Source of the DNA: a virus | Length of the DNA: 64,000 bases | Direction: 5' to 3' (one strand) | Virus record (IMG/VR): IMGVR_UViG_3300027746_000697 | Location: 32,001 to 96,000 of that record | In this document: piece by piece, positions 31,465 through 48,574 of the stretch | How positions within the stretch are numbered: position 1 is the first letter of the stretch | How the letters are laid out: each line of letters starts with the position of its first letter | Translations under genes and position numbers: made by a program | Notes under the pieces: generated by a model | What the model saw: the letters and a program-made list of their open reading frames with translations, nothing else | Databases searched by the model: none | What the model was told of the DNA's origin: nothing

Positions 31465-31534
31465 TTGACCTCATGCAATATAGAATATATACTAGTCTTA
31501 GTGACTGACGTCATTATATTAAAAGGAATTAATT

Positions 31535-34693: not shown

Positions 34694-34755
34694 TAGGATA
34701 GCAACAGCAAATTTAAAAACTCTTTTATTGAAAAAAAGCCAAAAATGCTATCCTG
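34694..34755 (+). ncRNA. CAGCA-module RNA copy 1
   Basis: TAGGATAGCA-ACAGCAA...AAAAA-TGCTATCCTG closing stem. Confidence 0.65.
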
Positions 34756-34763
34756 TTTTATAC

Positions 34764-34838
34764 ACTGTCGTCGTCTAGTGGCTAGGACGCTACCCTTTCA
34801 AGGTGGAGAAGCGAGATCGATACTCGTCGACAGTACCA
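34764..34838 (+). tRNA. tRNA-Glu(TTC)
   Basis: CTACC-CTTTCAA-GGTGG; T-loop ATCGATA; CCA. Confidence 0.88.
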
Positions 34839-34845
34839 ATTTTAT

Positions 34846-34923
34846 CTCTGTGTAATGTCAATCTGGTAGACGGCCTGATCTGGAGTCATGAGGATGTACG
34901 TTCGAATCGTACCATGGAGACCA
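34846..34923 (+). tRNA. tRNA-Pro(TGG), atypical anticodon loop
   Basis: CCTGA-TCTGGAG-TCATG (C33, A37); canonical T-arm; CCA. Confidence 0.7.
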
Positions 34924-34928
34924 ATTTT

Positions 34929-35002
34929 GCCCTTTTAGTATAATGGTATTACACCTGTTTTGTAATCAGGTTACGGCAGTTCGATTCTGTCATAGGGCAC
35001 CA
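34929..35002 (+). tRNA. tRNA-Thr(TGT)
   Basis: CCTGT-TTTGTAA-TCAGG; CCA. Confidence 0.85.
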
Positions 35003-35006
35003 AGTT

Positions 35007-35063
35007 TAGGATGCGAACAGCAAATTCAAAAATTCAACTTTTAATTGAAAAATAAGCATCCTG
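35007..35063 (+). ncRNA. CAGCA-module RNA copy 2 (Lys-UUU anticodon-arm mimic)
   Basis: TAGGATGC-GAACAGCAA...TTCAA-CTTTTAA-TTGAA...GCATCCTG. Confidence 0.65.
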
Positions 35064-35082
35064 TTTTATAAAAGGAAATCTA

Positions 35083-35211
35083 ATGGCACACAAGCAACAA
35101 GGTATTCTAACACGCAGTCCCCAATGGTGGAAACATCTTAAGGATTGGAAACGAGTGTTCTGGAAATCAGAACGCCAAGCACAAAAACGAAATATCAACA
35201 AAGGAGAATGA
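35083..35211 (+). CDS. small basic hypothetical protein (42 aa)
   Basis: AAAGGA RBS; MAHKQQGILTRSPQWWKHLKDWKRVFWKSERQAQK... Confidence 0.6.
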   Translation: MAHKQQGILTRSPQWWKHLKDWKRVFWKSERQAQKRNINKGE

Positions 35212-35293
35212 CATGAAACGTGCTAAACGTTAGTGTCATCTTTGACCCCGTATGGTCTTAGATGGCACGTAAAAGAAAATATTTACGATCCAT

Positions 35294-35368
35294 CCACGCT
35301 AAACTTTAGTGGCGAAGTACCCGGCTCTTAACCGGACTAACTGAGTTCGATTCTCAGAGCGTGGACCA
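35294..35368 (+). tRNA. tRNA-Lys(CTT)
   Basis: CCCGG-CTCTTAA-CCGGA; CCA. Confidence 0.85.
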
Positions 35369-35371
35369 TAT

Positions 35372-35446
35372 GGGGGTATAATTCAAAGGCTAGAATAGCC
35401 GGCTTTTAACCGGTCTATCAGGGTTCGAGTCCCTGTGCCCCTACCA
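35372..35446 (+). tRNA. tRNA-Lys(TTT)
   Basis: GCCGG-CTTTTAA-CCGGT; CCA. Confidence 0.9.
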
Positions 35447-35547
35447 TATAAAAACACATTACGGCGTAGGTCCAGAGATAACTTCATACTCGGCCGTAGC
35501 AGGATACAGAAGCAGACCTAAACCTGTTGTATAGTGTGGTTCTATAT

Positions 35548-35622
35548 GGTAACGTAGCATAACGGTCGTGCACCTCCTTCATACGGAGCAAGGTGTGAGT
35601 TCAAATCTCACCGTTACCACCA
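35548..35622 (+). tRNA. tRNA-Met or Ile2 (CAT)
   Basis: CCTCC-TTCATAC-GGAGC; CCA. Confidence 0.85.
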
Positions 35623-35660
35623 AACACAAAAATAAATATTCCACAACAGAGGATATGTGT

Positions 35661-36272
35661 ATGGGTGTACATGGATATTTTTCAACACCAATTTATGATA
35701 GTATGCTTGTGGGCGATGAATTAATTGCTGTACAAGCGGAGTTGGATCAAGTGGTTGCAGATTTGAAAGCAAAAGATTCATTTCAACATAATGAGTCTTG
35801 GTTACCAAACACACATAAATTATCCGACACAACTTTTGCGCAGAATTTATTATTAGATTACAACACTAAACATTTTGTAGATGCTTTGAAATTTCATGTT
35901 TTTGAATATGTAAAAATTTTAGATGTGCCTAAAAATAAAGTTGAGCAATTCAGCATTAGACAGTCTTGGATGACCAACACCGGAAAACACGAGTTTGCAC
36001 ATACACACAATCATGGAAGTGTTGATATTGCAGGCGTGTATTACTACAAAACAAGTGGTAAAGATGGTAATATAAATTTCATGACTCCAGTTTCACAGTT
36101 TTCAACATATCTATTAGAACATCTCCCAAACAACATATCTTACGAGCCTAAAGTTGGCAAGTTCATTTTGTTTCCAGGTTGGATAGATCACGGCGTTCCT
36201 GCAAATTACACAGATGATGAACGCATTAGTATTTCGTTTAATATAAATTTTAAACGTCCAGAATTTTCATAA
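35661..36272 (+). CDS. 2OG-Fe(II) oxygenase (TIGR02466-like)
   Basis: SWM...HTHNH...AGVYY...ILFPGWIDHGV...RISISFN; AGAGGA RBS; the ORF-track start overlaps a tRNA. Confidence 0.85.
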   Translation: MGVHGYFSTPIYDSMLVGDELIAVQAELDQVVADLKAKDSFQHNESWLPNTHKLSDTTFAQNLLLDYNTKHFVDALKFHVFEYVKILDVPKNKVEQFSIRQSWMTNTGKHEFAHTHNHGSVDIAGVYYYKTSGKDGNINFMTPVSQFSTYLLEHLPNNISYEPKVGKFILFPGWIDHGVPANYTDDERISISFNINFKRPEFS

Positions 36273-36274
36273 GA

Positions 36275-36519
36275 TGTTAGTAAAAGACTCAAGGTGTTCG
36301 GAAGTTTCGAAAGAGAAGATATAAAAGGTCGGAAGCCTTTAATATTTGGCAGTTATAAATTGCACTTCAGCCGGGCGGTGGATCAGGGCATACAGTCTGG
36401 GAGATCCTCAAAGGCAAATGACGCTCCATGTTTGCTAGACAAGTAGAGCGCGACTGTATGCCGCGGGTAGCCAAGTTTTCCTTGACAGGGACCAAAACTC
36501 TCAGAGTCTTTTACTAACA
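36275..36519 (+). ncRNA. candidate ~245-nt structured RNA
   Basis: Perfect 16-bp closing stem TGTTAGTAAAAGACTC/GAGTCTTTTACTAACA; internal 11-bp GGCATACAGTC/GACTGTATGCC. Confidence 0.6.
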
Positions 36520-36526
36520 CTTTTAT

Positions 36527-36601
36527 GCAGGATTAATTCAGTGGTAGAATGTCTCGTTGCCAACGAGAATGTCAGGAGTTCGACCCTCCTATCCTGCTCC
36601 A
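36527..36601 (+). tRNA. tRNA-Gly(GCC)
   Basis: TCTCG-TTGCCAA-CGAGA; TCCA end. Confidence 0.9.
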
Positions 36602-36652
36602 TAATATGGCTCCCAGACTTGTTCACATAGTGTCCTCTGGGAGTTTTCTTTT

Positions 36653-36715
36653 TAGGATAGCAACAGCAAACATTAAAAATCTTTTCTTGAAAAAAAGCCA
36701 AAAAATGCTATCCTG
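36653..36715 (+). ncRNA. CAGCA-module RNA copy 3 (Ser-UGA anticodon-loop mimic)
   Basis: Near-identical to copy 1; CTTTT-CTTGAAA-AAAAG. Confidence 0.65.
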
Positions 36716-36724
36716 TTTTATTGT

Positions 36725-36800
36725 TGGGGTGTCGCCTAGTGGCCTAAGGCAACGGTCTTTGAAATCGTCATCATGAGTTCGAATCTCATCTCCCCTGCCA
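36725..36800 (+). tRNA. tRNA-Gln(TTG)
   Basis: ACGGT-CTTTGAA-ATCGT; GCCA end. Confidence 0.85.
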
Positions 36801-36806
36801 AATTAT

Positions 36807-36882
36807 ATCCCTGTGGTGAAATAGGAAATCATCAAACCCTGCGAAGGTTTAGTCTCAGGTTCAACTCCTGATGGGGATGCCA
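36807..36882 (+). tRNA. tRNA-Arg(GCG)
   Basis: AAACC-CTGCGAA-GGTTT; GCCA end. Confidence 0.82.
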
Positions 36883-36888
36883 ATCTAT

Positions 36889-36964
36889 GGTGTCTTTAGT
36901 GTAGTGGCCTGCACCCTGCTCTGTGAAAGCGGTAGTACCGGATCGATACCGGTAAGGCACCCCA
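36889..36964 (+). tRNA. tRNA-His(GTG)
   Basis: G-1:C73; CTGCT-CTGTGAA-AGCGG. Confidence 0.88.
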
Positions 36965-36973
36965 ATTTTTAAT

Positions 36974-37065
36974 GCCAGCGAGACTTGACAGTCAGAGAGG
37001 TTTTATAAACCTTTTAGCGCCAGATTAGCGTTCTTGAGAGGGTTTGATTCCCTCCGCTGGTACCA
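36974..37065 (+). tRNA. atypical tRNA with TAT anticodon (Ile-UAU), long variable arm and minimal D-arm
   Basis: GCCAGCG/CGCTGGT-ACCA; GAGGT-TTTATAA-ACCTT; variable arm AGCGC..GCGTT; T-arm GAGGG-TTTGATT-CCCTC. Confidence 0.7.
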
Positions 37066-37067
37066 AT

Positions 37068-37141
37068 GCTCTTATAGTTAAATGGAAGAACGCCTCTTTG
37101 GTATGGAGGTAATGAAAGTTCGATTCTTTCTGAGAGCACCA
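37068..37141 (+). tRNA. tRNA-Thr(GGT)
   Basis: CCTCT-TTGGTAT-GGAGG; CCA. Confidence 0.85.
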
Positions 37142-37146
37142 AACAT

Positions 37147-37222
37147 GCTACTTTAGCTGATGTGGTCATAGCGGCGGTCTGAAGAACCGTTGAAAGAGGT
37201 TCGATTCCTCTAGGTAGCACCA
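37147..37222 (+). tRNA. tRNA-Phe(GAA)
   Basis: GCGGT-CTGAAGA-ACCGT; CCA. Confidence 0.88.
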
Positions 37223-37228
37223 CTCAAT

Positions 37229-37305
37229 GCCCCAGTGGCGCAATTGGTAGACGCGGCTCTCTCAAAAGGAGTGTGTTCCCCGTTCGAGTCGGGGCTGGGG
37301 TACCA
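37229..37305 (+). tRNA. tRNA-Leu(CAA), short variable region
   Basis: GCTCT-CTCAAAA-GGAGT; 77 nt; CCA. Confidence 0.85.
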
Positions 37306-37323
37306 TATTATTAGGAGATTGAT

Positions 37324-37530
37324 ATGAAAGCAGTTACATTTAAAAATCGTATGAACAATGAACAATTTCTATGTGATGACGTTCGAACTGTTCAGCATAT
37401 TGATGGAGTAGAATATTTACTTGTGCATAAGTTAGCACAAGATAGAAAATTTCTAATGCGTAAAGATGCATTAGAGAAAGTTAATACCGCTGTCGTTCAA
37501 CGGAGAGGACAACACTCTTCTAAAGTGTGA
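37324..37530 (+). CDS. hypothetical protein overlapping tRNA-Arg(TCT)
   Basis: AGGAG RBS; IDGVEYLLV motif; last 45 nt lie inside the tRNA. Confidence 0.6.
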   Translation: MKAVTFKNRMNNEQFLCDDVRTVQHIDGVEYLLVHKLAQDRKFLMRKDALEKVNTAVVQRRGQHSSKV

Positions 37531-37560
37531 ATGAGGGTTCGACTCCTTCCAGCGGTGCCA
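37486..37560 (+). tRNA. tRNA-Arg(TCT)
   Basis: ACACT-CTTCTAA-AGTGT; GCCA end. Confidence 0.88.
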
Positions 37561-37567
37561 AGAATTA

Positions 37568-37642
37568 CGGCCATTGGTGAAATGGATATCATCTCTGTCT
37601 TCGAAACAGAGGGTGTGGGTTCGATTCCTGCATGGCCGGCCA
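37568..37642 (+). tRNA. tRNA-Arg(TCG)
   Basis: TCTGT-CTTCGAA-ACAGA; GCCA end. Confidence 0.88.
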
Positions 37643-37709
37643 TTTAACGGTTGACAACTATAGTAATTGGCAATACAATTAAGTCATGTTTAACCAATGA
37701 AAGAAAAAC

Positions 37710-38264
37710 ATGAATCATTTACGTACTAGATATAAAGCTGATTGGTACGATAAAAAGATCGAACAGAATAAGGTAATTCAGGACGATCTTATTAGTATTA
37801 TTAACAAGTATAAGGAACCTAATTTTCCTTGGTCAGAAGATATGCTGAGATATCTCGAGAATGAAAACTTACTCGAAATTGCCATACCTACAGTTAACAA
37901 AGGTATTAGTGTAGTGTTAGGGGAAGGTATGGATTTTGATAATCATGGGGATGCTAAACTATCAATCGCAAGATTTCATTCAGGCGGTTCTAGTTACGCA
38001 TCTGGCATTAAATGTAAGTATAAGGAATTTATATTAGCATACGTATATGAACCTATACAAAAGAAATCGTATTATTTTGCCTTTCCAAAAAAGTATAACG
38101 AACATACTATTCCGTTTGATAAAAACACAGGTGCACCAAAGCGTAATAATTATATGTGGGACTACGAATGTTCCACGTTTGAAGAAATGGCAAACTACAA
38201 TATAGGATTAGGACTAGTTGAACAAATACCTAAAAATACATTTGACAATTTCTTTTTTGCATAG
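37710..38264 (+). CDS. hypothetical protein (possible nuclease-like insertion)
   Basis: Own sigma70-like promoter (TTGACA..TACAAT, 37651-37679); possible D...DAK motif. Confidence 0.55.
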   Translation: MNHLRTRYKADWYDKKIEQNKVIQDDLISIINKYKEPNFPWSEDMLRYLENENLLEIAIPTVNKGISVVLGEGMDFDNHGDAKLSIARFHSGGSSYASGIKCKYKEFILAYVYEPIQKKSYYFAFPKKYNEHTIPFDKNTGAPKRNNYMWDYECSTFEEMANYNIGLGLVEQIPKNTFDNFFFA

Positions 38265-38321
38265 TATAATAGTCATATACTAAGCAATTAGTGTTGTTCT
38301 TTAAAAATTTAAATCAAATAT

Positions 38322-38396
38322 GGAGCCATCGTCTATCGGTTAGGACATCTGGTTTTCATCCAGGCAAGCGGGGTTCGATTCCCCGTGGCTCTTCCA
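38322..38396 (+). tRNA. tRNA-Glu(TTC), second copy
   Basis: TCTGG-TTTTCAT-CCAGG; CCA; promoter TTGACA..TATAAT at 38242-38270. Confidence 0.88.
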
Positions 38397-38524
38397 TATA
38401 CGTGCTCTTTGAGTAGCTACAGTGGAACACCGAGAAACTTGCCAATGTCGACCAAAGCAAGGACCGGCCATGAAGAGAAGGGCTACCGTGGATTCAAGCG
38501 CCGCAGAGAGCACCTATATGGAAT

Positions 38525-38598
38525 ATATAAAAGCACACTAAGCAACACCCAACTGACTGGGATAGTAAGATGGCATTGCCCTTAGTGTGTTTTTATAT
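38525..38598 (+). repeat. TAAAGCAYA-type inverted-repeat cassette C
   Basis: ATATAAAAGCACACTAAG / CTTAGTGTGTTTTTATAT. Confidence 0.6.
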
Positions 38599-38675
38599 GC
38601 CCCGGTGGTGAAATTGGTAAACACAGCGGTCTTAGAAGCCGTAAGCTGAGAGTTCGAGTCTCTCCCAGGGCACCA
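38599..38675 (+). tRNA. tRNA-Leu(TAG), short variable region
   Basis: GCGGT-CTTAGAA-GCCGT; 77 nt; CCA. Confidence 0.85.
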
Positions 38676-38680
38676 AATTA

Positions 38681-38770
38681 GGAAGCGTGGCAGAGTCCGG
38701 CTTATTGCAACAGTCTTGAAAACTGTCGGCTCGAAAGGGTCCGTGAGTTCAAATCTCACCGCTTCCGCCA
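38681..38770 (+). tRNA. tRNA-Ser(TGA)
   Basis: ACAGT-CTTGAAA-ACTGT; long variable arm; GCCA. Confidence 0.92.
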
Positions 38771-38783
38771 TAATAAATAGTGT

Positions 38784-39335
38784 ATGAAAAATACGTTCCA
38801 TCATAGATTAAATATCCCAGTTAAATTTACACCAGTGTTTTTAGAAGATGCTCCTGTAATTTCTAATTACGATACAAATTTAATTAATAAAGAATTTTTA
38901 AATTGGATAGAATCTCTAAATTTAGAAATTAGCGGTTCGGAGTTATTCCATTTAAAACCAAATAATGATAAGAATCCAGATAGTTTACCAATTCATCTAG
39001 ATACTGGTGGATTTGATAATCATATTAAATTAAATTTTGTATACTGTAACACGACATCTAAAATGAATTGGTTTACTTGCAACGATATAAGTAAATTACA
39101 AGTTTTAAAAACGCCCACTGATACAGAATATACTTTAGCAAACGCAGAAGATTGCGAGTTAGTGTACTCAGCACAAATAGGACAACCAAGTTTAGTTAAT
39201 GCTGGCATGTTACATAGTGTATCGCCTGTAGAGTCTGAAAGGTATTGTTTTTCGTTTACTTTAATAAAAGACGGCAATATAATTACTTGGGAACAAGCAG
39301 AAGAAATTTTTAAAGAATATGTATCCTTAGTGTAA
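38784..39335 (+). CDS. hypothetical protein, cupin/2OG-oxygenase-like
   Basis: PIHLD...LVNAGMLHSV...RYCFS. Confidence 0.65.
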   Translation: MKNTFHHRLNIPVKFTPVFLEDAPVISNYDTNLINKEFLNWIESLNLEISGSELFHLKPNNDKNPDSLPIHLDTGGFDNHIKLNFVYCNTTSKMNWFTCNDISKLQVLKTPTDTEYTLANAEDCELVYSAQIGQPSLVNAGMLHSVSPVESERYCFSFTLIKDGNIITWEQAEEIFKEYVSLV

Positions 39336-39394
39336 TGGCAGCATTACAGTCTCCAAAACTGTCGGTCGGGGTTCGAGTCCCTGAGGGTACGCCA
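39321..39394 (+). tRNA. tRNA-Trp(CCA)
   Basis: ACAGT-CTCCAAA-ACTGT; GCCA. Confidence 0.9.
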
Positions 39395-39400
39395 AATATT

Positions 39401-39485
39401 GCGACTGTGGTGAAATAGGTAGACACAAGAGACTTAAAATCTCTCGCTTTCGGGCGTGCCGGTTCGATTCCGGCCAGTCGCACCA
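39401..39485 (+). tRNA. tRNA-Leu(TAA)
   Basis: AGAGA-CTTAAAA-TCTCT; variable arm; CCA. Confidence 0.93.
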
Positions 39486-39511
39486 AGATATAGTAATAAG
39501 TAAAAGAACAA

Positions 39512-39601
39512 GGAATGGTCCCATAATGGTATTGGAGCGGATTGCTAATCCGTCGAGTGGTGAAAGCCGCTTTCTGAGTTCGAGTCTCAGTCATTCCGCC
39601 A
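39512..39601 (+). tRNA. tRNA-Ser(GCT)
   Basis: GCGGA-TTGCTAA-TCCGT; long variable arm; GCCA. Confidence 0.88.
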
Positions 39602-39621
39602 AGTTATATAAAAAGGAAAAT

Positions 39622-39852
39622 ATGTTAAAACCAAATAAGACATTCAAATTAAGTAAGACAACCAAACGTATGCTGTGTAGTATTACTAACACAGAACAAC
39701 GTAATCAGTACAAGCGAATGATGATCGATGCAGAACTTTGTGCGGCCATTGTTCCAAAGAGTATTAAATCGGATCGTGGTGCTCCACGTGGCAATGGTCC
39801 GACTGGATATCAAACTAACGATACTGGAACTGCCAGTACCAGCACCGCTTGA
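39622..39852 (+). CDS. hypothetical protein
   Basis: AAAGGA RBS; MLKPNKTFKLSKTTKRML...YKRMMIDAEL. Confidence 0.65.
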   Translation: MLKPNKTFKLSKTTKRMLCSITNTEQRNQYKRMMIDAELCAAIVPKSIKSDRGAPRGNGPTGYQTNDTGTASTSTA

Positions 39853-39870
39853 AATAAGTAATACAGTTTT

Positions 39871-39946
39871 GCCGCTTTAGCTCATTTGGTAGAGCAGCCG
39901 CCTTGTAAGCGGCAGGTGGTCAGTTCGAATCCGACAAGCGGCACCA
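39871..39946 (+). tRNA. tRNA-Thr(TGT), second copy
   Basis: GCCGC-CTTGTAA-GCGGC; CCA. Confidence 0.93.
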
Positions 39947-40145
39947 ACCCCCGGCTACACTTCTACGTTAAGGAAGTGCGTGATTGCAAATACGATAATT
40001 GCACGGTGCATTGGATCTACCGCAAGGCTCTCTTTAAGGGCGACTTGAGAAATCACAAAGGCAGGGACGTTTCCCGTCTAAATAGAAAAGAACGTGGACA
40101 GAGTAACCGCTCAGTCTAGGGCTCATGTGGTGTGAGTAGCTAGAC

Positions 40146-40332
40146 ACTTTATTAAAGCATACTTGAATCCCACATAGTGAACAGATCAGGTTTGGCATCC
40201 CGGGCAGTTGAACAATAGTTTGACAACGCCAAATACGCCATAGTATGTTTTAATAAAGTACATTTAACTGGTCTATAAGATCAGTAGTAAGGACAGGGCA
40301 CCAGCAGTAGCGAAAGCCATAAATGTGCTTTA
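40146..40332 (+). repeat. two abutting TAAAGCAYA-type inverted-repeat cassettes (D, E)
   Basis: ACTTTATTAAAGCATACT/AGTATGTTTTAATAAAGT (40146-40259) and TAAAGTACATTTA/TAAATGTGCTTTA (40254-40332). Confidence 0.6.
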
Positions 40333-40340
40333 CTCAACAT

Positions 40341-40414
40341 GCGGGATTAGTTTAATGGTAAAACAGCAGATTTCCAATCTTCGGTCGGGGGTTCGATTCC
40401 CCCATCCCGCTCCA
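40341..40414 (+). tRNA. tRNA-Gly(TCC)
   Basis: GCAGA-TTTCCAA-TCTTC; TCCA. Confidence 0.9.
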
Positions 40415-40428
40415 AACTAAGGAATAGT

Positions 40429-41022
40429 ATGAAGGTATATCACGAAGATTATCTTTACGGATTTGACTTAGAATCTATCAACAATGATAAACTAGTTGAA
40501 TTTTGTCTTGAAGTCGAGCAATTTTTATTACAACAGTTACCTCCAGTTGATCCTGGTTGGTACGGAAGTGTATCAAGTGCTCACAACATGTCATACAATC
40601 TTCTTACATTTCCAAACAAAGAATTAAACAAGTTATATCATTCTATAAAAGAAAACGTAATCCCGTTATTAGATGCGGATACTACTTATGTGATAAAAAG
40701 CTGGTTAAATGTTTATCGTGCAGGACAAAAAATTGATTGGCACGGCCACTGGGCTGAAGAAAGCAAAGTATGGCATGGATTTTATTGTGCCCAAGTTGGG
40801 GACAGTGCAACCTATTATAAGATTCCAGAAGTTAAAGAAGTCATAACTGTTACTAGTAATGAAGGTTTATTAGTAATTGGCAAGAGTGCAGGAGATAAAC
40901 ATCGTAGCTCTGATTGGCATGATAATGCAATGCCCAGAATCACACTAGCATTTGATATTATTCCTATAGAGTCTATCGATAATAAACTATCTGTAAATCA
41001 TTATTTGCCGTTTAAATTATGA
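40429..41022 (+). CDS. 2OG-Fe(II) oxygenase-like protein
   Basis: SWLNVY...WHGH...HGFY...HRS...RITLAFD. Confidence 0.75.
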   Translation: MKVYHEDYLYGFDLESINNDKLVEFCLEVEQFLLQQLPPVDPGWYGSVSSAHNMSYNLLTFPNKELNKLYHSIKENVIPLLDADTTYVIKSWLNVYRAGQKIDWHGHWAEESKVWHGFYCAQVGDSATYYKIPEVKEVITVTSNEGLLVIGKSAGDKHRSSDWHDNAMPRITLAFDIIPIESIDNKLSVNHYLPFKL

Positions 41023-41267
41023 TCGATTATATAACAACATTTTTTGCAATTTTTTTACTCGATATTGTTTACACATACTACTTAAGATGTGTACAATACA
41101 ATCAAGTATTAAAAGCCAGTGGATGGAGTGTAGCCTGTTATGTACTAGGTAGTATAGCAGTTATAAATTATACCACTAACCATTGGCTAATTATTCCTGC
41201 AATGGCAGGTGCCTTTTGCGGTACGTTTGTTGGAATGAAAATTAAAAAGAAACAATTCGGAGTGTAG
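41019..41267 (+). CDS. small membrane protein
   Basis: Three hydrophobic segments, GAFCGTFVG; stop lies inside tRNA-Pro. Confidence 0.65.
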   Translation: MIDYITTFFAIFLLDIVYTYYLRCVQYNQVLKASGWSVACYVLGSIAVINYTTNHWLIIPAMAGAFCGTFVGMKIKKKQFGV

Positions 41268-41334
41268 CACAGCCTGGTAGTGCGCCTGGTTTGGGACCAG
41301 GAGGTCCAAGGTTCGAATCCTTGTACTCCGACCA
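41258..41334 (+). tRNA. tRNA-Pro(TGG), canonical copy
   Basis: CCTGG-TTTGGGA-CCAGG; CCA. Confidence 0.93.
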
Positions 41335-41341
41335 TAGTTAT

Positions 41342-41417
41342 CGCGGGGAGGGTCCGGTCACCAGCGTGGTCTCATAAGCCATTGCCATCCTTGGTTCAAA
41401 TCCAAGCCCCGCAACCA
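41342..41417 (+). tRNA. tRNA-fMet-like (CAT)
   Basis: CGCGGGG/CCCCGCA-ACCA with C1:A72 mismatch; GTGGT-CTCATAA-GCCAT; atypical D-arm. Confidence 0.78.
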
Positions 41418-41422
41418 ATTAA

Positions 41423-41497
41423 CTCGCTATAGTACAATGGATAGTATAGGGGTTTCCTAAACCTTTGATCCAAGTTCGATTCTTGGTGGCGGGACCA
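41423..41497 (+). tRNA. tRNA-Arg(CCT)
   Basis: GGGGT-TTCCTAA-ACCTT; CCA. Confidence 0.88.
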
Positions 41498-41498
41498 A

Positions 41499-42080: not shown

Positions 42081-42748
42081 ACTATATCCAAGTTAACAAC
42101 GCCGGTGGCATCATTAGCAATAAATTTATTAATAGATTCATATATTGCATTGTGAACAGATTCACTGCCTATATGATTTGGCCTTGGATCATCGATTAAC
42201 ATTTGTTTCAATTCGTTGCCTTTAAGATTCATTTCTTTTATTTCTCGTTTTGAAAAATAAACTAGTCCAGGTCTAATTTCGTTTTCGAAGGTAGTAGCAA
42301 ACGTATGTTTTTTATAATTAAGATGGAAATCTTGTTCCCAAGGCCATGTAAAAGTTGATGACTGATTGCTAGGAGAACTCCAAAGCACTATCAACTTAGA
42401 TTGTGAACATAGTTCTTTAAATCGTTTTAACGTGTATAGATAGTGTTCAAATGCCAACTCATTATTATAAAAATATTCAAAATAATCGGCTAATAATTTT
42501 TCTTGTTTTTCTAAAGGCAGATTTCGAATAGATCCGGTATAAGGAAACATATAATCGTTCCATACTACTATCACAATGTCTTTACTGGTTAATTTTTCAT
42601 GTACTGCCAATAACGCTAACAACATGTCAGAGTTGGATGTATTAGATTTGGCAAGATTTGTCACTTGATAGTTTTGATTAAGTTGGGTCACCCAACTAAT
42701 TGGGTTGTTCTCATTAACTGCATAGCTTCCGCCAAATATATAAATCAT
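42077..42748 (-). CDS. SGNH-like hydrolase
   Basis: IFGGSY, NLAKSNTSN, RPNH. Confidence 0.6.
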   Translation of the reverse strand: MIYIFGGSYAVNENNPISWVTQLNQNYQVTNLAKSNTSNSDMLLALLAVHEKLTSKDIVIVVWNDYMFPYTGSIRNLPLEKQEKLLADYFEYFYNNELAFEHYLYTLKRFKELCSQSKLIVLWSSPSNQSSTFTWPWEQDFHLNYKKHTFATTFENEIRPGLVYFSKREIKEMNLKGNELKQMLIDDPRPNHIGSESVHNAIYESINKFIANDATGVVNLDIV

Positions 42749-42790
42749 GAAATATTTATGGCAGGCTTATTTTAAAGGATAAGTATTTGA

Positions 42791-44689
42791 ATGAAAACTA
42801 TACAACTTTTATCGCTCACCGGCTGGAACGATTTTATCCCAGTTCTTTGGCCAAGTGCAAAAACATTTTATGAATTGTATGGTAAATATCCTGAAAATTA
42901 TAACTGGATATTGCCTACAACCGAAATTCATAGAGATATAGAAGAAAATCAACGTGAATTGTCATTGAATCCTCCAGATGTGCTAGGCGTAAGTTTGTAT
43001 GTATGGAATTATGACAGAACCATGTCATTATTAAAATGGGCAAAAGAACAATGGCCAAATTGTCTAATTATTACGGGCGGCCCACACCAATACTTTAAAC
43101 ATCACCCCGACTGGTTTCGAAAAAATTGGTTTATTGATGCAAGTTTGCCCAGCGAAGTATACGGAGAGATTGCCATCACTGACATATTAAACAATTTGAA
43201 GGATGATAATACCATCAGCTGGAATACCGTTGAACAAATGGTTTATCCTAGTAAGGATCGTTCAATGATGTTGAAGAGTCCAAAAGCATCTTACAAACGA
43301 GATTTTAAATGGAATTATTCTGCTTTTGAAGCACAGCAAGAACATATACAACAGTATATTGATTACTACTATGCAAATTCAGAAAATCCAGCGTTGCATA
43401 GTAAACTTGAAACAACTAGAGGTTGCCCGTATGAATGTACGTTTTGTGATTGGGGCGGCGGCATTGGCACCAAAGTAATTCTGAAAGACTTAGATTGTGT
43501 CAAAAAAGATTTAGACGTATTGTTAAGTTATGATATTAGCAGTGTGTATGTATGCGATGCTAATTTTGGAATCAACGGAGAACGAGATGTTGGCATAGTT
43601 CAATACATTGCAGATAAGAAAAACGCTTCTCTGAAAGATCGATTTCCAAATGTACAATATGGCGGATATGCTAAAACTAACAAACACTTTCATTTTTTAA
43701 AAAGAATCTTTACTATTGAGGCTATTAATAAAATGTCGTATGTGTACAAGATGTCCCAACAGTCATTTAACACTAACATATTAGCTAATATCAAACGTAC
43801 AGATTTACGGGTGAACGAACATTTTGAATTAGCGGATTATCTTCGAACAGAATTTGGTTACGAAGCCACTATTGAAATTATTATAGGACTACCGGGTACT
43901 ACATTAGATACTTGGTATAACGAATTTAACATACCATACGAAAAACAAATACTAGTTCGAGCATATGAATGGTACTTGTTACCCGAAGCCGAAAGTTTTG
44001 AAAAAGAGTACAGAGATAAATGGGGTATTAAAACAGCTCTCAAACGTGCGGATCAGCTTATTGATGGCATTCCCAGTGAGATTGTTGTTGAAGGTGGTAC
44101 ATTTTCAAGAAATGATTACAAAGAATTTACAACTGCGTATGCACTATATATTTTCTTTAATCAGAGTGGAGTCTATAAGAAATCTATCAAAGAGTTATTG
44201 AAAATAAAAAATATAAAATTTGGAGATTTCTTAAGACAATTTTATAATGAATGTTATCCGTTGTTAAAATTGGCCAGTTTAGAATCATTCACACATTTTG
44301 AAAAACATCTAGACGAAGTGGTTTCGGACGAGATAAACGAAACATTTCATAATTTAACATGGTTAAACAACCACGGCCCGCAGGTACATAGATTCATTTA
44401 TTTTATTATAGAATATTTCAAGCACTATGAAATGCTTGGTCCTATTGTTGAAAAATGGTTTATTGAAAATGGTGTAAACCCATCGTTAGTGCAAGGTGAA
44501 GCCGAGACAATATATAGCGCAAAGCGATTAAATACCACTAGAGGGTTTATTAAAAAAATATCTTTTGATTTTTATAAAGACGAAAGAGAATTTTATGAGG
44601 ATGTTATGCGGTCAAGCCAATATACTTATGGAAATTTGTTAGTAGCCGAAAAACGTGTCCTGAGTGCTAATATAACTTGGGGATTTTAA
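42791..44689 (+). CDS. cobalamin-binding radical SAM enzyme
   Basis: PDVLGVSLYVWN, ITGGPH, ETTRGCPYECTFC (CxxxCxxC), DANFG, IIGLPG. Confidence 0.88.
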   Translation: MKTIQLLSLTGWNDFIPVLWPSAKTFYELYGKYPENYNWILPTTEIHRDIEENQRELSLNPPDVLGVSLYVWNYDRTMSLLKWAKEQWPNCLIITGGPHQYFKHHPDWFRKNWFIDASLPSEVYGEIAITDILNNLKDDNTISWNTVEQMVYPSKDRSMMLKSPKASYKRDFKWNYSAFEAQQEHIQQYIDYYYANSENPALHSKLETTRGCPYECTFCDWGGGIGTKVILKDLDCVKKDLDVLLSYDISSVYVCDANFGINGERDVGIVQYIADKKNASLKDRFPNVQYGGYAKTNKHFHFLKRIFTIEAINKMSYVYKMSQQSFNTNILANIKRTDLRVNEHFELADYLRTEFGYEATIEIIIGLPGTTLDTWYNEFNIPYEKQILVRAYEWYLLPEAESFEKEYRDKWGIKTALKRADQLIDGIPSEIVVEGGTFSRNDYKEFTTAYALYIFFNQSGVYKKSIKELLKIKNIKFGDFLRQFYNECYPLLKLASLESFTHFEKHLDEVVSDEINETFHNLTWLNNHGPQVHRFIYFIIEYFKHYEMLGPIVEKWFIENGVNPSLVQGEAETIYSAKRLNTTRGFIKKISFDFYKDEREFYEDVMRSSQYTYGNLLVAEKRVLSANITWGF

Positions 44690-44692
44690 ATT

Positions 44693-45337
44693 ATGAAAAA
44701 TGCTGTTGAATGTTTAAACTTCAAAGTTGATTTGAATCAACTACGTTCTTACTACAACGAACTTAAAGCATCGTATCAAGAATACAATTGGTCTTATATG
44801 GATAATCCTGAAGATATCCGGGACGACATTTATAATTTTAATAATCAATATAACAAAAAACGCAATGCATTTGGGTGGGCTATCACTGTGCCTGAAATAC
44901 TGAGCGATAATAAAAAAGTTGTACCGTGGACTAATATACATAAAGATTTTGTATATGGTGCTGAACATTTGGCAACTGAAAAACAAACACCTATGGTTTT
45001 TGGTATAGTTAAAAAAATACTAGAAATATTTCCGTATGCAAAACAAGTTAGTTTAACTGTGTTTGTACCGGGTGCGCATATTGTTCCACACAAAGACGAA
45101 GATTACTTAATTAGAGTACATATTCCAATTTACACAAGCAAGGATGCCAAGTGGTTAACATGGAACGGTTACCAACCTCTTGACAAGGTTGGGCAAGCCT
45201 ATCTGTGCGACACTAGAGATATTCATAGTGTATACAACGATGGCGATTCTGATAGAGTTCACTTGTTATTTGCCATAGAATCACAGTATGAAGAACATAT
45301 TAAAAGCATAACTGGTATACTAAAGACAGATGAATGA
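44693..45337 (+). CDS. Asp/Asn beta-hydroxylase-family 2OG-Fe(II) oxygenase
   Basis: PGAHIVPHKD, RVHIPI, HSVYN...RVHL. Confidence 0.85.
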   Translation: MKNAVECLNFKVDLNQLRSYYNELKASYQEYNWSYMDNPEDIRDDIYNFNNQYNKKRNAFGWAITVPEILSDNKKVVPWTNIHKDFVYGAEHLATEKQTPMVFGIVKKILEIFPYAKQVSLTVFVPGAHIVPHKDEDYLIRVHIPIYTSKDAKWLTWNGYQPLDKVGQAYLCDTRDIHSVYNDGDSDRVHLLFAIESQYEEHIKSITGILKTDE

Positions 45338-46010
45338 AATTAAAGAATTTTATTCTCGACTACAATTTCCAGGTACTTATACTATTGTAGATTTAGAATT
45401 TTATGACAGCATAGTATGTAATGACTATCTAAAAATATTTGATGATGCAGTATCCGGAGCAAGTTCAGTTTTAGATATTGGGTGTGGAAGTGGTTTCATT
45501 ATTAATTTTCTAGCACGAAGATATCCCAACATATCATTTGATGCTGTTGATTTTAGTGACAGTATTGATATTGCCAAACGGTTTAGTAAAGATCATGGCA
45601 TCTATAATATTAATTATTATAAAGAAGATTTTTTAACTTGGAATACTGATAAAACTTACGATTTAATTTTGTCTAACGGTGTACTGCATCATATTCCAGA
45701 ATATAAACAGGCCATAAGTAAAATACATACTTTAGCAACTGATAAAGTTGTGATTGGTATTTACAACAAGTACGGAAAAGTATTAAAACGTATTGCAAAA
45801 GTACAATACGTATCAAATATATTATACATAGATCAAGAGCAGTGTCCGTTTGAAATGGCATTTACTGATAAAGAATTTAAAAGTTTATTTGATATATTTG
45901 ATATCCACACAGCGTATCCAAGTTTCCAAAATAAATTAATCGATTTTATAAACTTGTTTAATGCCAAAAACGGCGGACTAACCATTTATTCCATGAGCTT
46001 GCCAAAGTAA
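45330..46010 (+). CDS. class I SAM-dependent methyltransferase
   Basis: VLDIGCGSG, AVDFS, YDLILSNGVLHH. Confidence 0.88.
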   Translation: MNEIKEFYSRLQFPGTYTIVDLEFYDSIVCNDYLKIFDDAVSGASSVLDIGCGSGFIINFLARRYPNISFDAVDFSDSIDIAKRFSKDHGIYNINYYKEDFLTWNTDKTYDLILSNGVLHHIPEYKQAISKIHTLATDKVVIGIYNKYGKVLKRIAKVQYVSNILYIDQEQCPFEMAFTDKEFKSLFDIFDIHTAYPSFQNKLIDFINLFNAKNGGLTIYSMSLPK

Positions 46011-46039
46011 TTGACATTACGACAACTTGCCTATATAAT
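46011..46039 (+). promoter_or_regulatory. sigma70-type promoter
   Basis: TTGACA-17 nt-TATAAT. Confidence 0.8.
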
Positions 46040-46059
46040 ACAACTTTAACGGAGCATAT

Positions 46060-46320
46060 ATGAAACAACGCATATTCAATCAAGTACGTAAACCGCTTGA
46101 CCTTAGTCGCGGCCCTGGAATTGATACAGAAATTTGTACCGTTCAAGCTGGCGGAAATAGATTCAATCTGGTGCTGATTGCCAGCGAACGTGCAAGAGAA
46201 ATCCGCCGTCAAAATAAAGAAAGTGACAAGCGTGAACATGTTCACAGCATTGTGACAGCACTGGAAGAAATTCAACGTGGTGAAATCGAACCCCGTAAGT
46301 ATCTCAACAAAGTGAGATAA
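46060..46320 (+). CDS. rpoZ: RNA polymerase omega subunit-like protein
   Basis: GNRFNLVLIASERAREI...VTALEEIQRGEI. Confidence 0.75.
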   Translation: MKQRIFNQVRKPLDLSRGPGIDTEICTVQAGGNRFNLVLIASERAREIRRQNKESDKREHVHSIVTALEEIQRGEIEPRKYLNKVR

Positions 46321-46327
46321 TAACTTT

Positions 46328-46402
46328 GCCTGGTTAGCTCAGGGGTAGAGCAACGCCTTTACACGGCGAAGGTCCGCGGTTCGAAACCGTGACCAGGTAC
46401 CA
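46328..46402 (+). tRNA. tRNA-Val(TAC)
   Basis: ACGCC-TTTACAC-GGCGA; CCA. Confidence 0.9.
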
Positions 46403-46408
46403 AATAAT

Positions 46409-46485
46409 GTGGGTGTGCCGCTGAATGGTTAGGCCCCGGATTGCAAATCCGTATTATGCAGGTTCGAGTCCTGTCACCCACTCCA
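46409..46485 (+). tRNA. tRNA-Cys(GCA)
   Basis: CCGGA-TTGCAAA-TCCGT; U73; CCA. Confidence 0.88.
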
Positions 46486-46488
46486 AAT

Positions 46489-46618
46489 TAGGATACTAAC
46501 AGCATATTTTACATTCCAAACTTTGAGTTGTAGGTTCGAATCCTACCTTCCAATCAAGCCTAAACAGCAGTTGGTTGTAGATCAATGGTAGATCAAAAGT
46601 CGTAAAAAATGTATCCTG
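46489..46618 (+). ncRNA. CAGCA-module RNA copy 4: YrlA/Y-RNA-like circularly permuted tRNA mimic
   Basis: TAGGATAC..CAGCA / GTATCCTG closing stem enclosing T-arm GTAGG-TTCGAAT-CCTAC, loop-closed acceptor-like stem and D-arm GATC-AATGGTA-GATC. Confidence 0.72.
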
Positions 46619-46695
46619 TTTAACCAAAATATAGTGACAAGAGACAGTAGAGATACTATAATAGTCGTATAGCAAGTAACACTGCTAAGAAGTTT

Positions 46696-46847
46696 TAGGA
46701 TCGGTTCAGCAACATCAATTAAACTGATGGTCGGCTTAATCGGCAGGTACTGGTGGAGGGGCTTGTCCCCATTGAAACTGGTGCTGAGCCGCGTCGACGA
46801 GGTGAGTTAGTTTTCTCACTTGAAACAAAAAGGCAAAAACGATCCTG
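46696..46847 (+). ncRNA. CAGCA-module RNA copy 5
   Basis: TAGGATCG-GTTCAGCAA...AAAAA-CGATCCTG; long nested hairpin cargo; promoter GTGACA-17-TATAAT at 46634-46662. Confidence 0.65.
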
Positions 46848-46853
46848 TTAGTT

Positions 46854-47085
46854 TTGGATGACTACAGCAATTTAAACTACTAACGTAACTGCTATAGAAG
46901 GTGGTCGAAGGACACAGTAGAAATACTGTTCTAGAAATAGACGCTCAAGAAATAGATAGACTGGCAAAGCACCAGATATGATTCGCATACAGAAAAACAT
47001 GCGATAGGCAACATGAATGTTGCTAGGGTCTGGGTGCCGTAATTGGCCAGACCAGAATACTAAACAAATTGGCACGATCATCCTG
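46854..47085 (+). ncRNA. CAGCA-module RNA copy 6 (multi-hairpin cargo)
   Basis: GGATGA-CTACAGCAA...TCATCCTG; several short hairpins, three AGAAATA motifs. Confidence 0.6.
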
Positions 47086-47094
47086 TTAAAGTTT

Positions 47095-47150
47095 TAGAAT
47101 GTTAACAGCAACTTTAAATTTCACTATAATCGAAAATAAAATACATTCTG
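47095..47150 (+). ncRNA. CAGCA-module RNA copy 7 (5' leader of Ro-like gene)
   Basis: TAGAATGT-TAACAGCAA...ACATTCTG, ending just before AAAGG RBS and ATG 47165. Confidence 0.65.
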
Positions 47151-47164
47151 TAAAGGTAATCAAA

Positions 47165-48574
47165 ATGAACGCATTTGTAAACGCAGTAGCAAACCAAGAA
47201 GCCCGTACTGAAAACGGTATGAAGGCACGTAAGTCAACAGCTTCGGCTTGTGTTGACTTGTTCTACAAGATCGGCGCAAGCCGTGGCAAGGACATCACAG
47301 GCGACTTCACAGCCGCTTATGTGGAAAACTCTGATGTAGCACTACGCATCGCACAATGGGCACGTGATGTCCGTGGTGGTGCAGGTGAACGTCAACTGTT
47401 CCGCGATATTCTAGTTCATCTAGAAAAGCGTGACCCAGACGCCGCTTTGGCTCTTCTAAAGAAGGTTCCAGAAGTTGGTCGTTGGGATGACATCTTTGTC
47501 TTCCAGGGCCCAGTCCTGAAGTCAGCCGCTTATACCATGTTGGGTGATGCCCTACGTGCTAAGAACGGTTTGGCTGCAAAGTGGACTCCTCGTAAGGGGC
47601 AAATTGCCGCTGAAGTTCGTGCCTTCTTTGGCATGACTCCAAAGCAATACCGTAAGTCATTGGTAACAATGACCACAGTTGTTGAAACCCAAATGTGTGC
47701 AGGAGATTGGGACAACATCAACTTCAGTCACGTGCCAAGTGTTGCGTCACGCAACTACAAGAAGGCATTCAACCGTCACACAACTCTGTTCGCAGAGTAT
47801 GTGGCCCGGTTGGTAAGTGGTGATAAGACTGTTAAGGTTAACGCCAACGCAATCTTCCCACATGACGTGCTGAAGGGAATCGCTCACAGCTACACCAAGC
47901 TGGACAAGACAGAAACCGACCATGTGATCGCACAATGGGATGCTCTGCCAAACTATGTAGGTGACGCAAGTATCCTGCCTCTAGTTGACGTAAGTGGTAG
48001 TATGACCTGCGCCGCAGGTAAGAACACACAAGTACGTTGTTTGGACGTTGCAGTTAGCCTTGGTTTGTACTTGGCAGATAAGAACAAGGGAGTGTTCAAG
48101 GACACATTCTTGACTTTCTCAAGCAAGCCACAACTGGTTACTCTAAAGGGTAACATTGTTGACAAGGTAACCCAAATGTCTAAGAGCGACTGGGAAATGA
48201 GCACTAACCTAAATGCGGCTATGAACAAGATTCTAGACGTAGCAGTTAAGGGCGCAGTACCAGCAAGCGATATGCCAGCCATGTTGCTGATCTTGTCAGA
48301 CATGCAGTTCAACCAATGCGCCAAGTTTGACGACAGCGCAATGCAAATGATCGAACGCAAGTTTGCAGATGCAGGTTACACTGTGCCACAGATTGTTTTC
48401 TGGAACCTAAACAGTTCAGACAACGTGCCTGTGGCGTCAGACAAGAGTGGTGCCGCATTGGTAAGTGGATTTAGTCCAAGTATCATGACTAGCTTGCTAG
48501 CCGCTGATATGGATCAATTCACTCCAGAAGGCATCATGCTTAAGACTGTAATGAGTGATCGTTACGCTCTGTAA
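47165..48574 (+). CDS. Ro60/TROVE-like RNA-binding protein with vWA domain (DUF2828-type)
   Basis: TENG, RDVRGGAGER, GRWDD, AAKWTPR, MIDAS DVSGSM, STN, ILSDMQF, IVFWNL, VSGFSP. Confidence 0.82.
   Translation: MNAFVNAVANQEARTENGMKARKSTASACVDLFYKIGASRGKDITGDFTAAYVENSDVALRIAQWARDVRGGAGERQLFRDILVHLEKRDPDAALALLKKVPEVGRWDDIFVFQGPVLKSAAYTMLGDALRAKNGLAAKWTPRKGQIAAEVRAFFGMTPKQYRKSLVTMTTVVETQMCAGDWDNINFSHVPSVASRNYKKAFNRHTTLFAEYVARLVSGDKTVKVNANAIFPHDVLKGIAHSYTKLDKTETDHVIAQWDALPNYVGDASILPLVDVSGSMTCAAGKNTQVRCLDVAVSLGLYLADKNKGVFKDTFLTFSSKPQLVTLKGNIVDKVTQMSKSDWEMSTNLNAAMNKILDVAVKGAVPASDMPAMLLILSDMQFNQCAKFDDSAMQMIERKFADAGYTVPQIVFWNLNSSDNVPVASDKSGAALVSGFSPSIMTSLLAADMDQFTPEGIMLKTVMSDRYAL

Follow-up and report, generated by a model that had tools for sequence, protein, structure and literature searches.

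What are seven related elements, all closed by the same kind of helix, doing within and beyond an array of transfer RNA (tRNA) genes and directly in front of a gene of the DUF2828/DUF7788 family? The question is raised by a stretch of viral DNA of 64,000 nucleotides (nt), positions 32,001 to 96,000 of IMG/VR record IMGVR_UViG_3300027746_000697 (below, the window), in which all seven elements lie on the plus strand, as does that gene. An earlier, sequence-only reading of the window took them for a distinct Y-RNA-like class in which one protein-binding handle carries interchangeable modules, and linked them to the product of the gene as a Ro60/TROVE-like protein. Our computational analysis makes it likely, in our judgement, that the elements are indeed Y-RNA-like small non-coding RNA genes, in which one handle, the proposed binding site of the adjacent DUF2828/DUF7788 paralogue of Ro60, is combined with interchangeable modules.

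All seven elements were recovered at the places first proposed for them, both by reading the sequence and by a regular-expression (regex) scan, and they have a common anatomy. The helix that closes them has the form (U)AGRAU-NN(NN) / (NN)NN-AUYCUG; two or three bases separate its 5' strand from the CAGCA(A/U), which is unpaired, the interior varies, and an A-rich 3' strand leads to the terminal CUGU. In the constant part, or handle, a stem of 6-10 bp brings the 5' and 3' ends together, and (U)NACAGCAA is unpaired right after the 5' strand; the enclosed cargo ranges from about 35 to 210 nt across the seven copies, the range that had been claimed. The spans given below include the U.G closing pair and the CUGU end. 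Written as DNA, the stems are GGATAGCA/TGCTATCC (twice), GGATGC/GCATCC, GGATAC/GTATCC, GGATCG/CGATCC, GGATGA/TCATCC and GAATGT/ACATTC, all of them present and complementary, and the closing stem is retained in the minimum-energy fold of every copy. The 5' pattern GRAT-N-CAGCA matches at 13 places in the window, and a complementary closing strand follows downstream at just these seven. A looser scan of the whole contig gave nine additional matches, none of which (0/9) has the GRAU...AUYCUGU handle; the two that were inspected, at window 29087-29510 and 61391-61446, both lie inside open reading frames and were dropped. Plain counts of the two half-motifs say little alone (ACAGCAW, 50 occurrences against 27.5 expected; ATYCTGT, 27 against 20.4).

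For searches we used a covariance model, R1, built from 33 short copies of the window's clade only; Infernal was left to align the rest because MAFFT failed on the 3' strands of distant copies. Four of the window copies are short forms of 57-64 nt. Copy 1 (34694..34756; R1 59.7 bits) consists of the stem UAGGAUAGCA/UGCUAUCCUG, the motif ACAGCAA, an inner U/A hairpin, the A-rich strand and the CUGU end, and lies 4 nt after tRNA-Ile and 7 nt before tRNA-Glu. Copy 2 (35007..35064; 63.5 bits), with the stem GGAUGC/GCAUCC, follows tRNA-Thr by 4 nt; copy 3 (36653..36716; 53.9 bits), a near-duplicate of copy 1, precedes tRNA-Gln by 8 nt; and copy 7 (47095..47151; 70.3 bits) is closed by GAAUGU/ACAUUC. 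Read by eye, the modules of these short forms hold an inner hairpin of 4-5 bp with compensatory changes (UUUUC/GAAAA, CUUUU/AAAAG, UUCA/UGAA, UCUU/AAGA). The long copies are copy 4 (46489..46619; R1 36.5 bits), which directly follows a tRNA gene, copy 5 (46696..46848), in which the handle GGAUCG/CGAUCC surrounds a structured cargo of about 130 nt (fold z -3.23), and copy 6 (46854..47086), in which GGAUGA/UCAUCC surrounds a multi-hairpin cargo of about 210 nt (z -2.41). Copies 1 to 4 thus named lie inside the tRNA array, 4-8 nt from tRNA ends, and copies 4 to 7 run in tandem into the gene, as had been noticed.

The claim that the stems covary was borne out. Across an alignment of 28 R1 hits, 96.6% of stem cells pair, compared with 74% in shuffles (0/500 reach the observed value) and 32-48% when the partner strand is slid; the alignment was fitted to the covariance model, and it is the slid-partner control that carries the weight. 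Changes occur on both sides in 7 of the 8 stem pairs of this alignment; of its 26 distinct rows, 25 preserve the G-C pair at columns 4/158, and covariation is seen at the inner pairs. Close relatives were represented by 80 loci whose encoded proteins are 87-94% identical to that of the window. In these loci and the window together, the handle regex finds 229 elements on the gene's strand and 7 on the opposite strand, with a UG tail on 221, and 55 of the 58 loci for which at least 1 kb of upstream sequence is available carry one to four copies in that kilobase. R1 gives five hits in a complete relative of 372 kb, every one of them on the gene's strand and 3-7 kb upstream of the gene. Inverted termini, variable internal cargo, many copies per genome and the near-duplication of copies 1 and 3 would also be features of MITE-like (miniature inverted-repeat transposable element) mobile repeats, with terminal inverted repeats and no RNA function. 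We regard this explanation as very improbable: the orientation is nearly always that of the gene, the stems differ among copies yet keep pairing, the conserved motif is asymmetric, the positions are orthologous in relatives, and the complete 372-kb genome has no copy elsewhere.

The site of copy 4 shows how such RNAs may vary. In some relatives this position is occupied by a short form of 51-52 nt and at other loci by forms of 111-128 nt, and cargo has therefore been exchanged on a constant handle. The window's copy 4 carries a YrlA-like, tRNA-like cargo in which a T arm, GUAGGUUCGAAUCCUAC, precedes a D arm, GUAGAUCAAUGGUAGAUC; the same order, a T arm (GGUUCGAAUCC, with covarying stems) and then a D arm, is found in 7 of 10 aligned long forms, window copy 4 included, and copy 4 is the only one of the seven window copies with such a domain. 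Copy 4 scores 26.9 bits (E 0.0022) with the Rfam YrlA family RF02553, and a mycobacteriophage copy beside the gene scores 39.8 bits; both values are below the gathering score of 69. Among sub-threshold matches to YrlA these are the two best, and each of the two copies has a T arm and a D arm. In the cmscan alignment ACAGCAUAU falls on the model's acggCgaAU, the region of the GNCGAA Ro60-site motif (PMC4201824), so that CAGCAA sits in the place of that motif as a different word. Copy 5 has orthologues in relatives, with compensatory change at 6 of 21 predicted pairs, and copy 6 has 44 distinct orthologous sequences there; for the cargo of copies 5 and 4, RNAalifold yielded the closing stem, a few hairpins and little else.

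The gene into which the tandem copies run (47165..48574, plus strand) encodes a protein of 469 aa, with Pfam matches to DUF7788 (1.7e-47) and DUF2828 (1.9e-27) and a match to PHROG 850, 'RNA-binding protein' (2e-139). An AlphaFold model built from 66 diverse homologues (pLDDT 91.5, pTM 0.90) consists of a helical-repeat ring and a vWA domain bearing a MIDAS (metal-ion-dependent adhesion site), whose motif, D275-S277-S279, T347 and D379, is invariant in the 66 homologues. When the model was compared with the PDB by Foldseek, the best 13 matches were all Ro60, from Thermus phage phiLo (9kop, 9l5y), Xenopus (2i91, 1yvr, 1yvp), human (9nen) and Deinococcus (2nvo), with 499-544 aligned columns, query TM-scores of 0.39-0.63 and E-values of 9.5e-9 to 1.1e-5; these are followed by isolated vWA domains at E > 1e-3. 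As modelled, the protein is a full-length structural homologue of Ro60, matched end to end, and the label 'Ro60/TROVE-like' is valid at the level of the fold because all of these best matches are Ro60.

This family is large, with 6215 cluster representatives at E <= 0.001. DUF2828 is present in 706 phage records, among them Felix O1-like, Listeria, Campylobacter, Vibrio, Staphylococcus and Enterococcus phages, and some mycobacteriophage homologues are already annotated 'Ro-like RNA binding protein'; a protein atlas search returned viral DUF2828 clusters only. DUF2828/DUF7788 also occurs in plants, green algae, fungi, a dinoflagellate and the Amoebozoa Cavostelium, Nematostelium and Flabellula. 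In the dinoflagellate Durusdinium, protein P0307 has DUF2828/DUF7788 fused to leucyl-tRNA synthetase, and another member of the family, P0275, adds PF13563; these fusions point to tRNA-related work for the family. A limited search of the literature for 'DUF2828', judged by title and abstract opening, gave no mention concerned with RNA.

Handle and gene are found together well beyond the window's clade. R1 was run with filters off over 96.7 kb around the DUF2828 genes of 12 distant phages, and its best 14 hits (E <= 0.2), in 7 of the 12, are all on the gene's strand and all at places found by regex: Listeria LMTA-57 (47.0 and 44.5 bits), Aeromonas LAh_6 (six hits, 37.1-21.8), Ralstonia RSP15 (25.4), Synechococcus BUCT-ZZ01 (24.7), Staphylococcus S-CoN_Ph8 (23.7), Campylobacter CP30A (23.6 and 20.4) and Felix O1 (21.5). 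No hit on the opposite strand appears above rank 15 (18.9 bits, E 0.39). When copies found by regex, by eye or by both are counted, 13 of 16 distant phages have copies no more than 3-4 kb from the gene. Tandem copies lie upstream of it in Listeria (3), Aeromonas LAh_6 (7), Campylobacter (2), BUCT-ZZ01 (3), Enterococcus (1) and Lak-B6 (1) phages and downstream in a mycobacteriophage (3), S-CoN_Ph8 (3) and Alsa_1 (3, with the variant AUACAGC(C/U)AA); Felix O1 (4) and RSP15 (2) have them amid neighbouring tRNA genes, and Synechococcus B3 has at least five, on both sides of the gene, the downstream ones adjoining tRNA genes. Three phages have no copy near the gene: GAP32 gives R1 hits of 37.5 and 36.8 bits inside its tRNA array, 200 kb away, pEa_SNUABM_49 gives 38.9, 33.6 and 28.1 bits elsewhere in the genome, and AsFcp_2 gives a weak hit (21.5 bits) 10.6 kb upstream. 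The linkage of RNA and gene is genome-wide and not always one of adjacency, a point that the sequence-only reading had missed.

The association was also approached from the RNA. A pattern scan of IMG/VR gave at least 120 stretches, of which 80 loci with 89 matches, mostly of the window's clade, were kept; in 80 of the 89 matches listed, pairing extends to all four free positions of the stem. DUF2828 is present in 34 of the 80 loci among the matches listed and in 8 of 10 whole contigs tested from the remainder, and the two whole contigs that lack it are rated 67% and 24% complete. As a control we scanned five phages that have tRNA arrays and no DUF2828 (0/5), and their 789 kb contain a single R1 hit, of 17.7 bits (E 0.77). 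Since R1 is nearly absent from these genomes, the handle follows the protein and not tRNA arrays as such. Together with the YrlA-like copy 4 and the exchange of cargo at its site, this co-occurrence supports the proposal of one handle with interchangeable modules, to which the protein would bind.

As had been claimed, the last copy adjoins the ribosome-binding site of the gene: the end of copy 7 lies 14 nt ahead of the ATG at 47165, AAGG being in between, and among the 72 loci that offer at least 120 nt of upstream sequence, 62 have their last copy 12-16 nt from the start codon. The stem and position of copy 7 recur in Aeromonas phage LAh_6, and in a Vibrio phage the ribosome-binding site and start codon lie within a mini-handle. 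This conserved position and the Vibrio mini-handle fit translational control by the bound protein, which the sequence-only reading had suggested for copy 7. Autoregulation of that kind is no more than a possibility, since a promoter-like TTAACA-17-TATAAT (47102-47130; an 11/12 match) sits inside copy 7; a loosely defined promoter-like hexamer pair is present in 26 of 62 last-copy orthologues. A second promoter-like site, GTGACA-17-TATAAT, lies between copies 4 and 5 (46634..46662, plus strand); as a consensus match only, it could drive copies 5-7 and the DUF2828 gene.

Contigs from four lake metatranscriptome runs, belonging to four studies, lie on copies 5-7 and the gene, error-free on copies 5-6 and the gene, which attests to presence in RNA libraries only; the uncovered parts (46582-46678, most of 46000-46580, and 48716-48900) prove nothing, and the parts cannot be ranked by depth. 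As contig starts fall at two different places, 46701 and 46709, we claim no transcript ends. Some of these contigs skip part of the copy 6 cargo: two runs, which belong to different studies, each have one contig that omits 127 nt (46876-47004), and a single contig in one run omits 105 nt (46914-47020). These skips of 105-127 nt are probably related strains with a shorter module, or they may reflect RNA processing.

Several of our observations weigh against the Y-RNA-like reading. At gathering thresholds Rfam gave only tRNAs and a transfer-messenger RNA (tmRNA) in the window, and no family was reached on any of the seven copies. The canonical Ro60-site motif, GNCGAA(N0-1)G or CGAA, is absent from all seven, which have CAGCA(A/U) instead. 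The TROVE part of the earlier label did not hold at the sequence level: the 469-aa protein has no Pfam TROVE match at E <= 0.01, a search of PDB sequences gave nothing at E <= 1, and its relation to Ro60 was shown by fold search only. The co-occurrence is weakened by the rough E-values of R1, by cases found by regex or eye only (Vibrio 6E35.1a, Lak-B6 and Staphylococcus Alsa_1, the last with the variant CAGC(C/U)AA) and by the small sample of five genomes in the negative control, and the contig of the window is estimated to be only 32% of its genome. Finally, the short copies 1, 2, 3 and 7 have A/U-rich, weakly structured interiors that fold no better than shuffles (z -1.1 to +0.2), and the RNAs of GAP32 lie 200 kb from its gene, so that adjacency elsewhere could partly reflect shared closeness to tRNA genes.

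The last two points would suit cis-acting signals of the tRNA-array transcript or of the gene leader, such as processing punctuation, promoters or attenuators, as opposed to stable particle RNAs, and so would the few nucleotides that separate copies 1-4 from tRNA ends and the promoter-like site inside copy 7 with its counterparts in last-copy orthologues. We consider this explanation unlikely: just 26 of the 62 orthologues keep such hexamers, the five tRNA-array phages without DUF2828 yielded one low-scoring hit, and in Campylobacter, mycobacterial and Staphylococcus phages tandem copies stand beside the gene with no tRNA between. A conserved single-stranded motif, a covarying stem and large folds that include a tRNA-like domain better fit a trans-acting RNA.

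Trans-acting RNAs need not be partners of the DUF2828 protein, and their handle might be the target of some other factor (an RRM protein, PNPase or an enzyme that processes or modifies tRNA, for example), with DUF2828 linked through a shared pathway only. Linkage that is sometimes genome-wide only would agree with this, as would the methyltransferase-like and polynucleotide-kinase-like genes that flank the locus, and the sole direct binder proven for the dictyostelid Class I RNAs considered below is the RRM protein CIBP/Rnp1A (PMC7919456). The commonest layout in very different phages is nonetheless that of tandem copies running into or out of the DUF2828 gene on the same strand, an arrangement familiar from Ro60 and its Y RNAs (PMC4201824; PMC12135203), and no other neighbouring gene is common to the annotated loci inspected; recognition by another factor therefore seems to us improbable.

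If the elements are Y-RNA-like, the handle would be the binding site of the neighbouring DUF2828/DUF7788 protein, a paralogue of the Ro60 ring protein, and the enclosed module would be replaceable: a 4-5-bp hairpin in the short forms, a permuted T-arm/D-arm domain in copy 4, and larger folds in copies 5 and 6. Copies 1-4, sited a few bases from tRNA ends, would be released by tRNA processing, and copies 5-7, together with the gene, may be transcribed from the putative promoter at 46634-46662. If Ro60/Y RNA particles are a guide, the handle may load or gate the ring while the module recruits other factors, and during infection the particle might act in the quality control of structured RNA, tRNA included, or in its repair or protection.

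The window belongs to one viral contig of 116.6 kb with a G+C content of 39.7% and a CheckV completeness of about 32%; its close relatives are on contigs of up to 372 kb, which is why we take it for a fragment of a large freshwater phage. The window holds 31 tRNA genes and one permuted (two-piece) tmRNA at 31013-31482 (Rfam tmRNA_permuted 134 bits, beta_tmRNA 120 bits), for which ARAGORN gives the tag peptide ANANTFEYFKVPASVAFSANDADFAMVA. A tRNA-like sequence at 34847-34919 scores 25.7 bits against an Rfam tRNA gathering score of 29 and has no ARAGORN call. Just upstream of tRNA-Gly, in A+T-rich surroundings, a G+C-rich intergenic stretch of about 230 nt (36290-36520) may be another structured RNA; at E <= 10 it matched no convincing Rfam family, the sole match being snoRNA-like at 12 bits. 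Directly 3' of the DUF2828 stop codon lies another G+C-rich stretch (48575-48700), without the CAGCA handle, and downstream of it a terminator-like hairpin (48716-48744). The neighbouring genes include two 2-oxoglutarate (2OG)-Fe(II) oxygenase-like genes within the tRNA array (35568-36272 and 40429-41022), a tRNA-methyltransferase-like gene upstream of the RNA cluster (45330-46010) and a polynucleotide-kinase/ATPase-like gene downstream of the Ro-like gene (48983-49450), a neighbourhood that hints at RNA modification and repair.

Some distant loci have features of their own. In Listeria LMTA-57 the DUF2828 gene has an RtcB-type 'tRNA-splicing ligase' 1.3 kb downstream (L085 6850-8061), and in GAP32 it has an RNA ligase directly upstream (L211 1504-2769); these neighbours recall the rsr-yrlBA-rtcBA repair operon of Salmonella. 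The deposited coding sequence of Aeromonas LAh_6 (L210 2905-4392) starts at 2905 and its protein match at 3001, and its 5' end overlaps two RNA copies; the start was probably called too early. In Synechococcus B3 an annotated pseudo-tRNA (L215 5863-5972) stands between handle copies, with the variant UCAGCCAUU. Its D arm precedes its T arm, a long insert separating them, and instead of a broken tRNA it may represent a tRNA-like module associated with the handle.

Is the class a distinct one, as the sequence-only reading held? No Rfam family reached its threshold and a limited literature search found no match, which agrees with that claim; below threshold the elements resemble YrlA (above) and a family that had been overlooked, the Class I RNAs of Dictyostelium (RF01414). 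RF01414 is the best Rfam family for all four short window copies, copies 1, 2, 3 and 7 aligning over its full length (1-56) with 17.7, 23.0, 18.3 and 18.3 bits against a gathering score of 41.5. It is also the best family for 2 of 3 Listeria copies (23.1 and 19.6 bits), all 7 of LAh_6 (29.6-19.1) and 2 of 3 of S-CoN_Ph8 (22.4 and 22.4), in total 15 of 17 copies in the scanned stretches of four phages, all below threshold; the long window copies 4-6 have no RF01414 match.

Class I RNAs have an end-joining stem of about 6 bp in which pairing is conserved and sequence is not, an invariant 5' G whose partner is the C in the CUGU that ends the RNA, a motif of 11 nt adjoining the 5' strand and a variable remainder, at a length of about 60 nt, and no homologues were found outside Dictyostelia (Kjellin 2021, PMC7919456). 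The phage elements likewise have a stem of about 6 bp in which pairing is conserved and a 5' G pairs with a 3' C; in 7/7 window copies the stem is followed by CUGU, and the short forms are of comparable length. The RF01414 consensus of the 11-nt motif is CCUUACAGCAA and that of 26 copies from 13 phages is CUUACAGCAA, in which CAGCA is invariant and the following A nearly so; the window copies have NAACAGCAA or UUCAGCAA, which differ from the Class I motif in the first two or three positions.

A dictyostelid, Tieghemostelium lacteum, has a DUF2828 protein (KYR00564.1, 504 aa, on a 1.2-Mb scaffold) that is 32% identical to the window protein over residues 24-468 (E 2e-67), and with the shared RNA features this makes Class I RNAs possible partners of a Ro paralogue. 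Several facts oppose such a link. All scores are sub-threshold, the searches made found no DUF2828 homologue in Dictyostelium discoideum, DUF2828 is widespread in lineages without a reported RNA of this kind, and the proven direct binder is the RRM protein; a pull-down with Class I RNA is reported to have given GuaB, NdkC, the RRM protein CIBP and DDB_G0281243, of unknown function (10.1101/2020.04.05.026054). A limited search found no literature link of Class I RNAs to Ro60, Y RNA, TROVE or phage. The likeness may be due either to homology or to convergence. We put forward only tentatively, as a conjecture somewhat more open to doubt than to belief, that phage CAGCAA RNAs and Class I RNAs form one ancient class, the ligands of the DUF2828 branch of the Ro60 superfamily, in a second Ro/Y-type ribonucleoprotein system that spans phages, giant viruses and eukaryotes.

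Ro60 and Y RNAs form a conserved and still poorly understood RNA-surveillance particle, and our findings point to a parallel system. The large DUF2828/DUF7788 family appears to own a simple, computable RNA handle that carries tRNA-like or other modules, which opens the way to an assay for an uncharacterised protein family, to natural modular RNA scaffolds, and to asking, with well-studied phages that grow on laboratory hosts, what Ro-type particles do in infection, for example in tRNA repair, as anticodon-nuclease decoys or in PNPase control. If the two RNAs are one ancient class, Class I RNAs, known since 2004 without a mechanism, would gain a candidate partner and a candidate function in RNA surveillance, and a twenty-year-old orphan RNA class with a developmental phenotype would have a partner that can be tested.

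How, then, does the locus compare with known systems? We class it as a variant of the Ro60/Y RNA kind that accompanies another branch of the protein superfamily, and the main reading, in which the protein would bind the handle, has good computational support. The modelled phage protein has the same whole-length fold as Ro60/TROVE (1yvp, 2i91, 2nvo, 9l5y), an N-terminal helical-repeat ring and a C-terminal vWA domain with MIDAS; it differs in a structural-alignment identity of 12-18% and in being shorter, 469 aa compared with about 500-540. YrlA RNAs, which have a tRNA-like domain and the GNCGAA motif, lie no more than 4 kb from TROVE-annotated Ro60 genes in 254 bacteria and 22 phages, the tRNA-like domain being required in at least one RNA per species (Chen 2014, PMC4201824), and the Ro60 of phage phiLo binds two upstream Y-like RNAs with CGAA motifs, Yrl1 and Yrl2, as well as host PNPase (Hu 2025, PMC12135203). 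Like these, the elements are small RNAs on the strand of a gene for a Ro60-fold protein, with several paralogues per locus; all seven in the window are on the strand of the DUF2828-type paralogue into which copies 4-7 run. In both, the ends are paired (in 7/7 window copies, with covariation), a conserved unpaired motif follows the 5' strand, and a variable module may include a permuted tRNA-like domain. The window protein is, in contrast, from the DUF2828/DUF7788 branch and not Pfam TROVE, and judged by sequence the elements would be Y-RNA-like and yet fall outside YrlA in two features, the motif, which is ACAGCAA in place of GNCGAA/CGAA, and the score. Most copies of the window type are, moreover, minimal, at about 55 nt without a tRNA-like part, and there may be up to seven or more of them, often among tRNA genes.

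The Class I RNAs differ from the phage elements in their promoter, the Dictyostelium upstream sequence element (DUSE), thought to be read by RNA polymerase III, where the phage has bacterial-type promoter-like sites; phage copies score 17.7-29.6 bits, below the gathering value of the family, and may carry large cargo. Both have a terminal stem of about 6 bp whose 5' G pairs with the C in a CUG(U) on the 3' side, a similar motif (..UUACAGCAA) directly after the 5' strand, a variable A/U-rich remainder at some 55-60 nt, and many paralogues.

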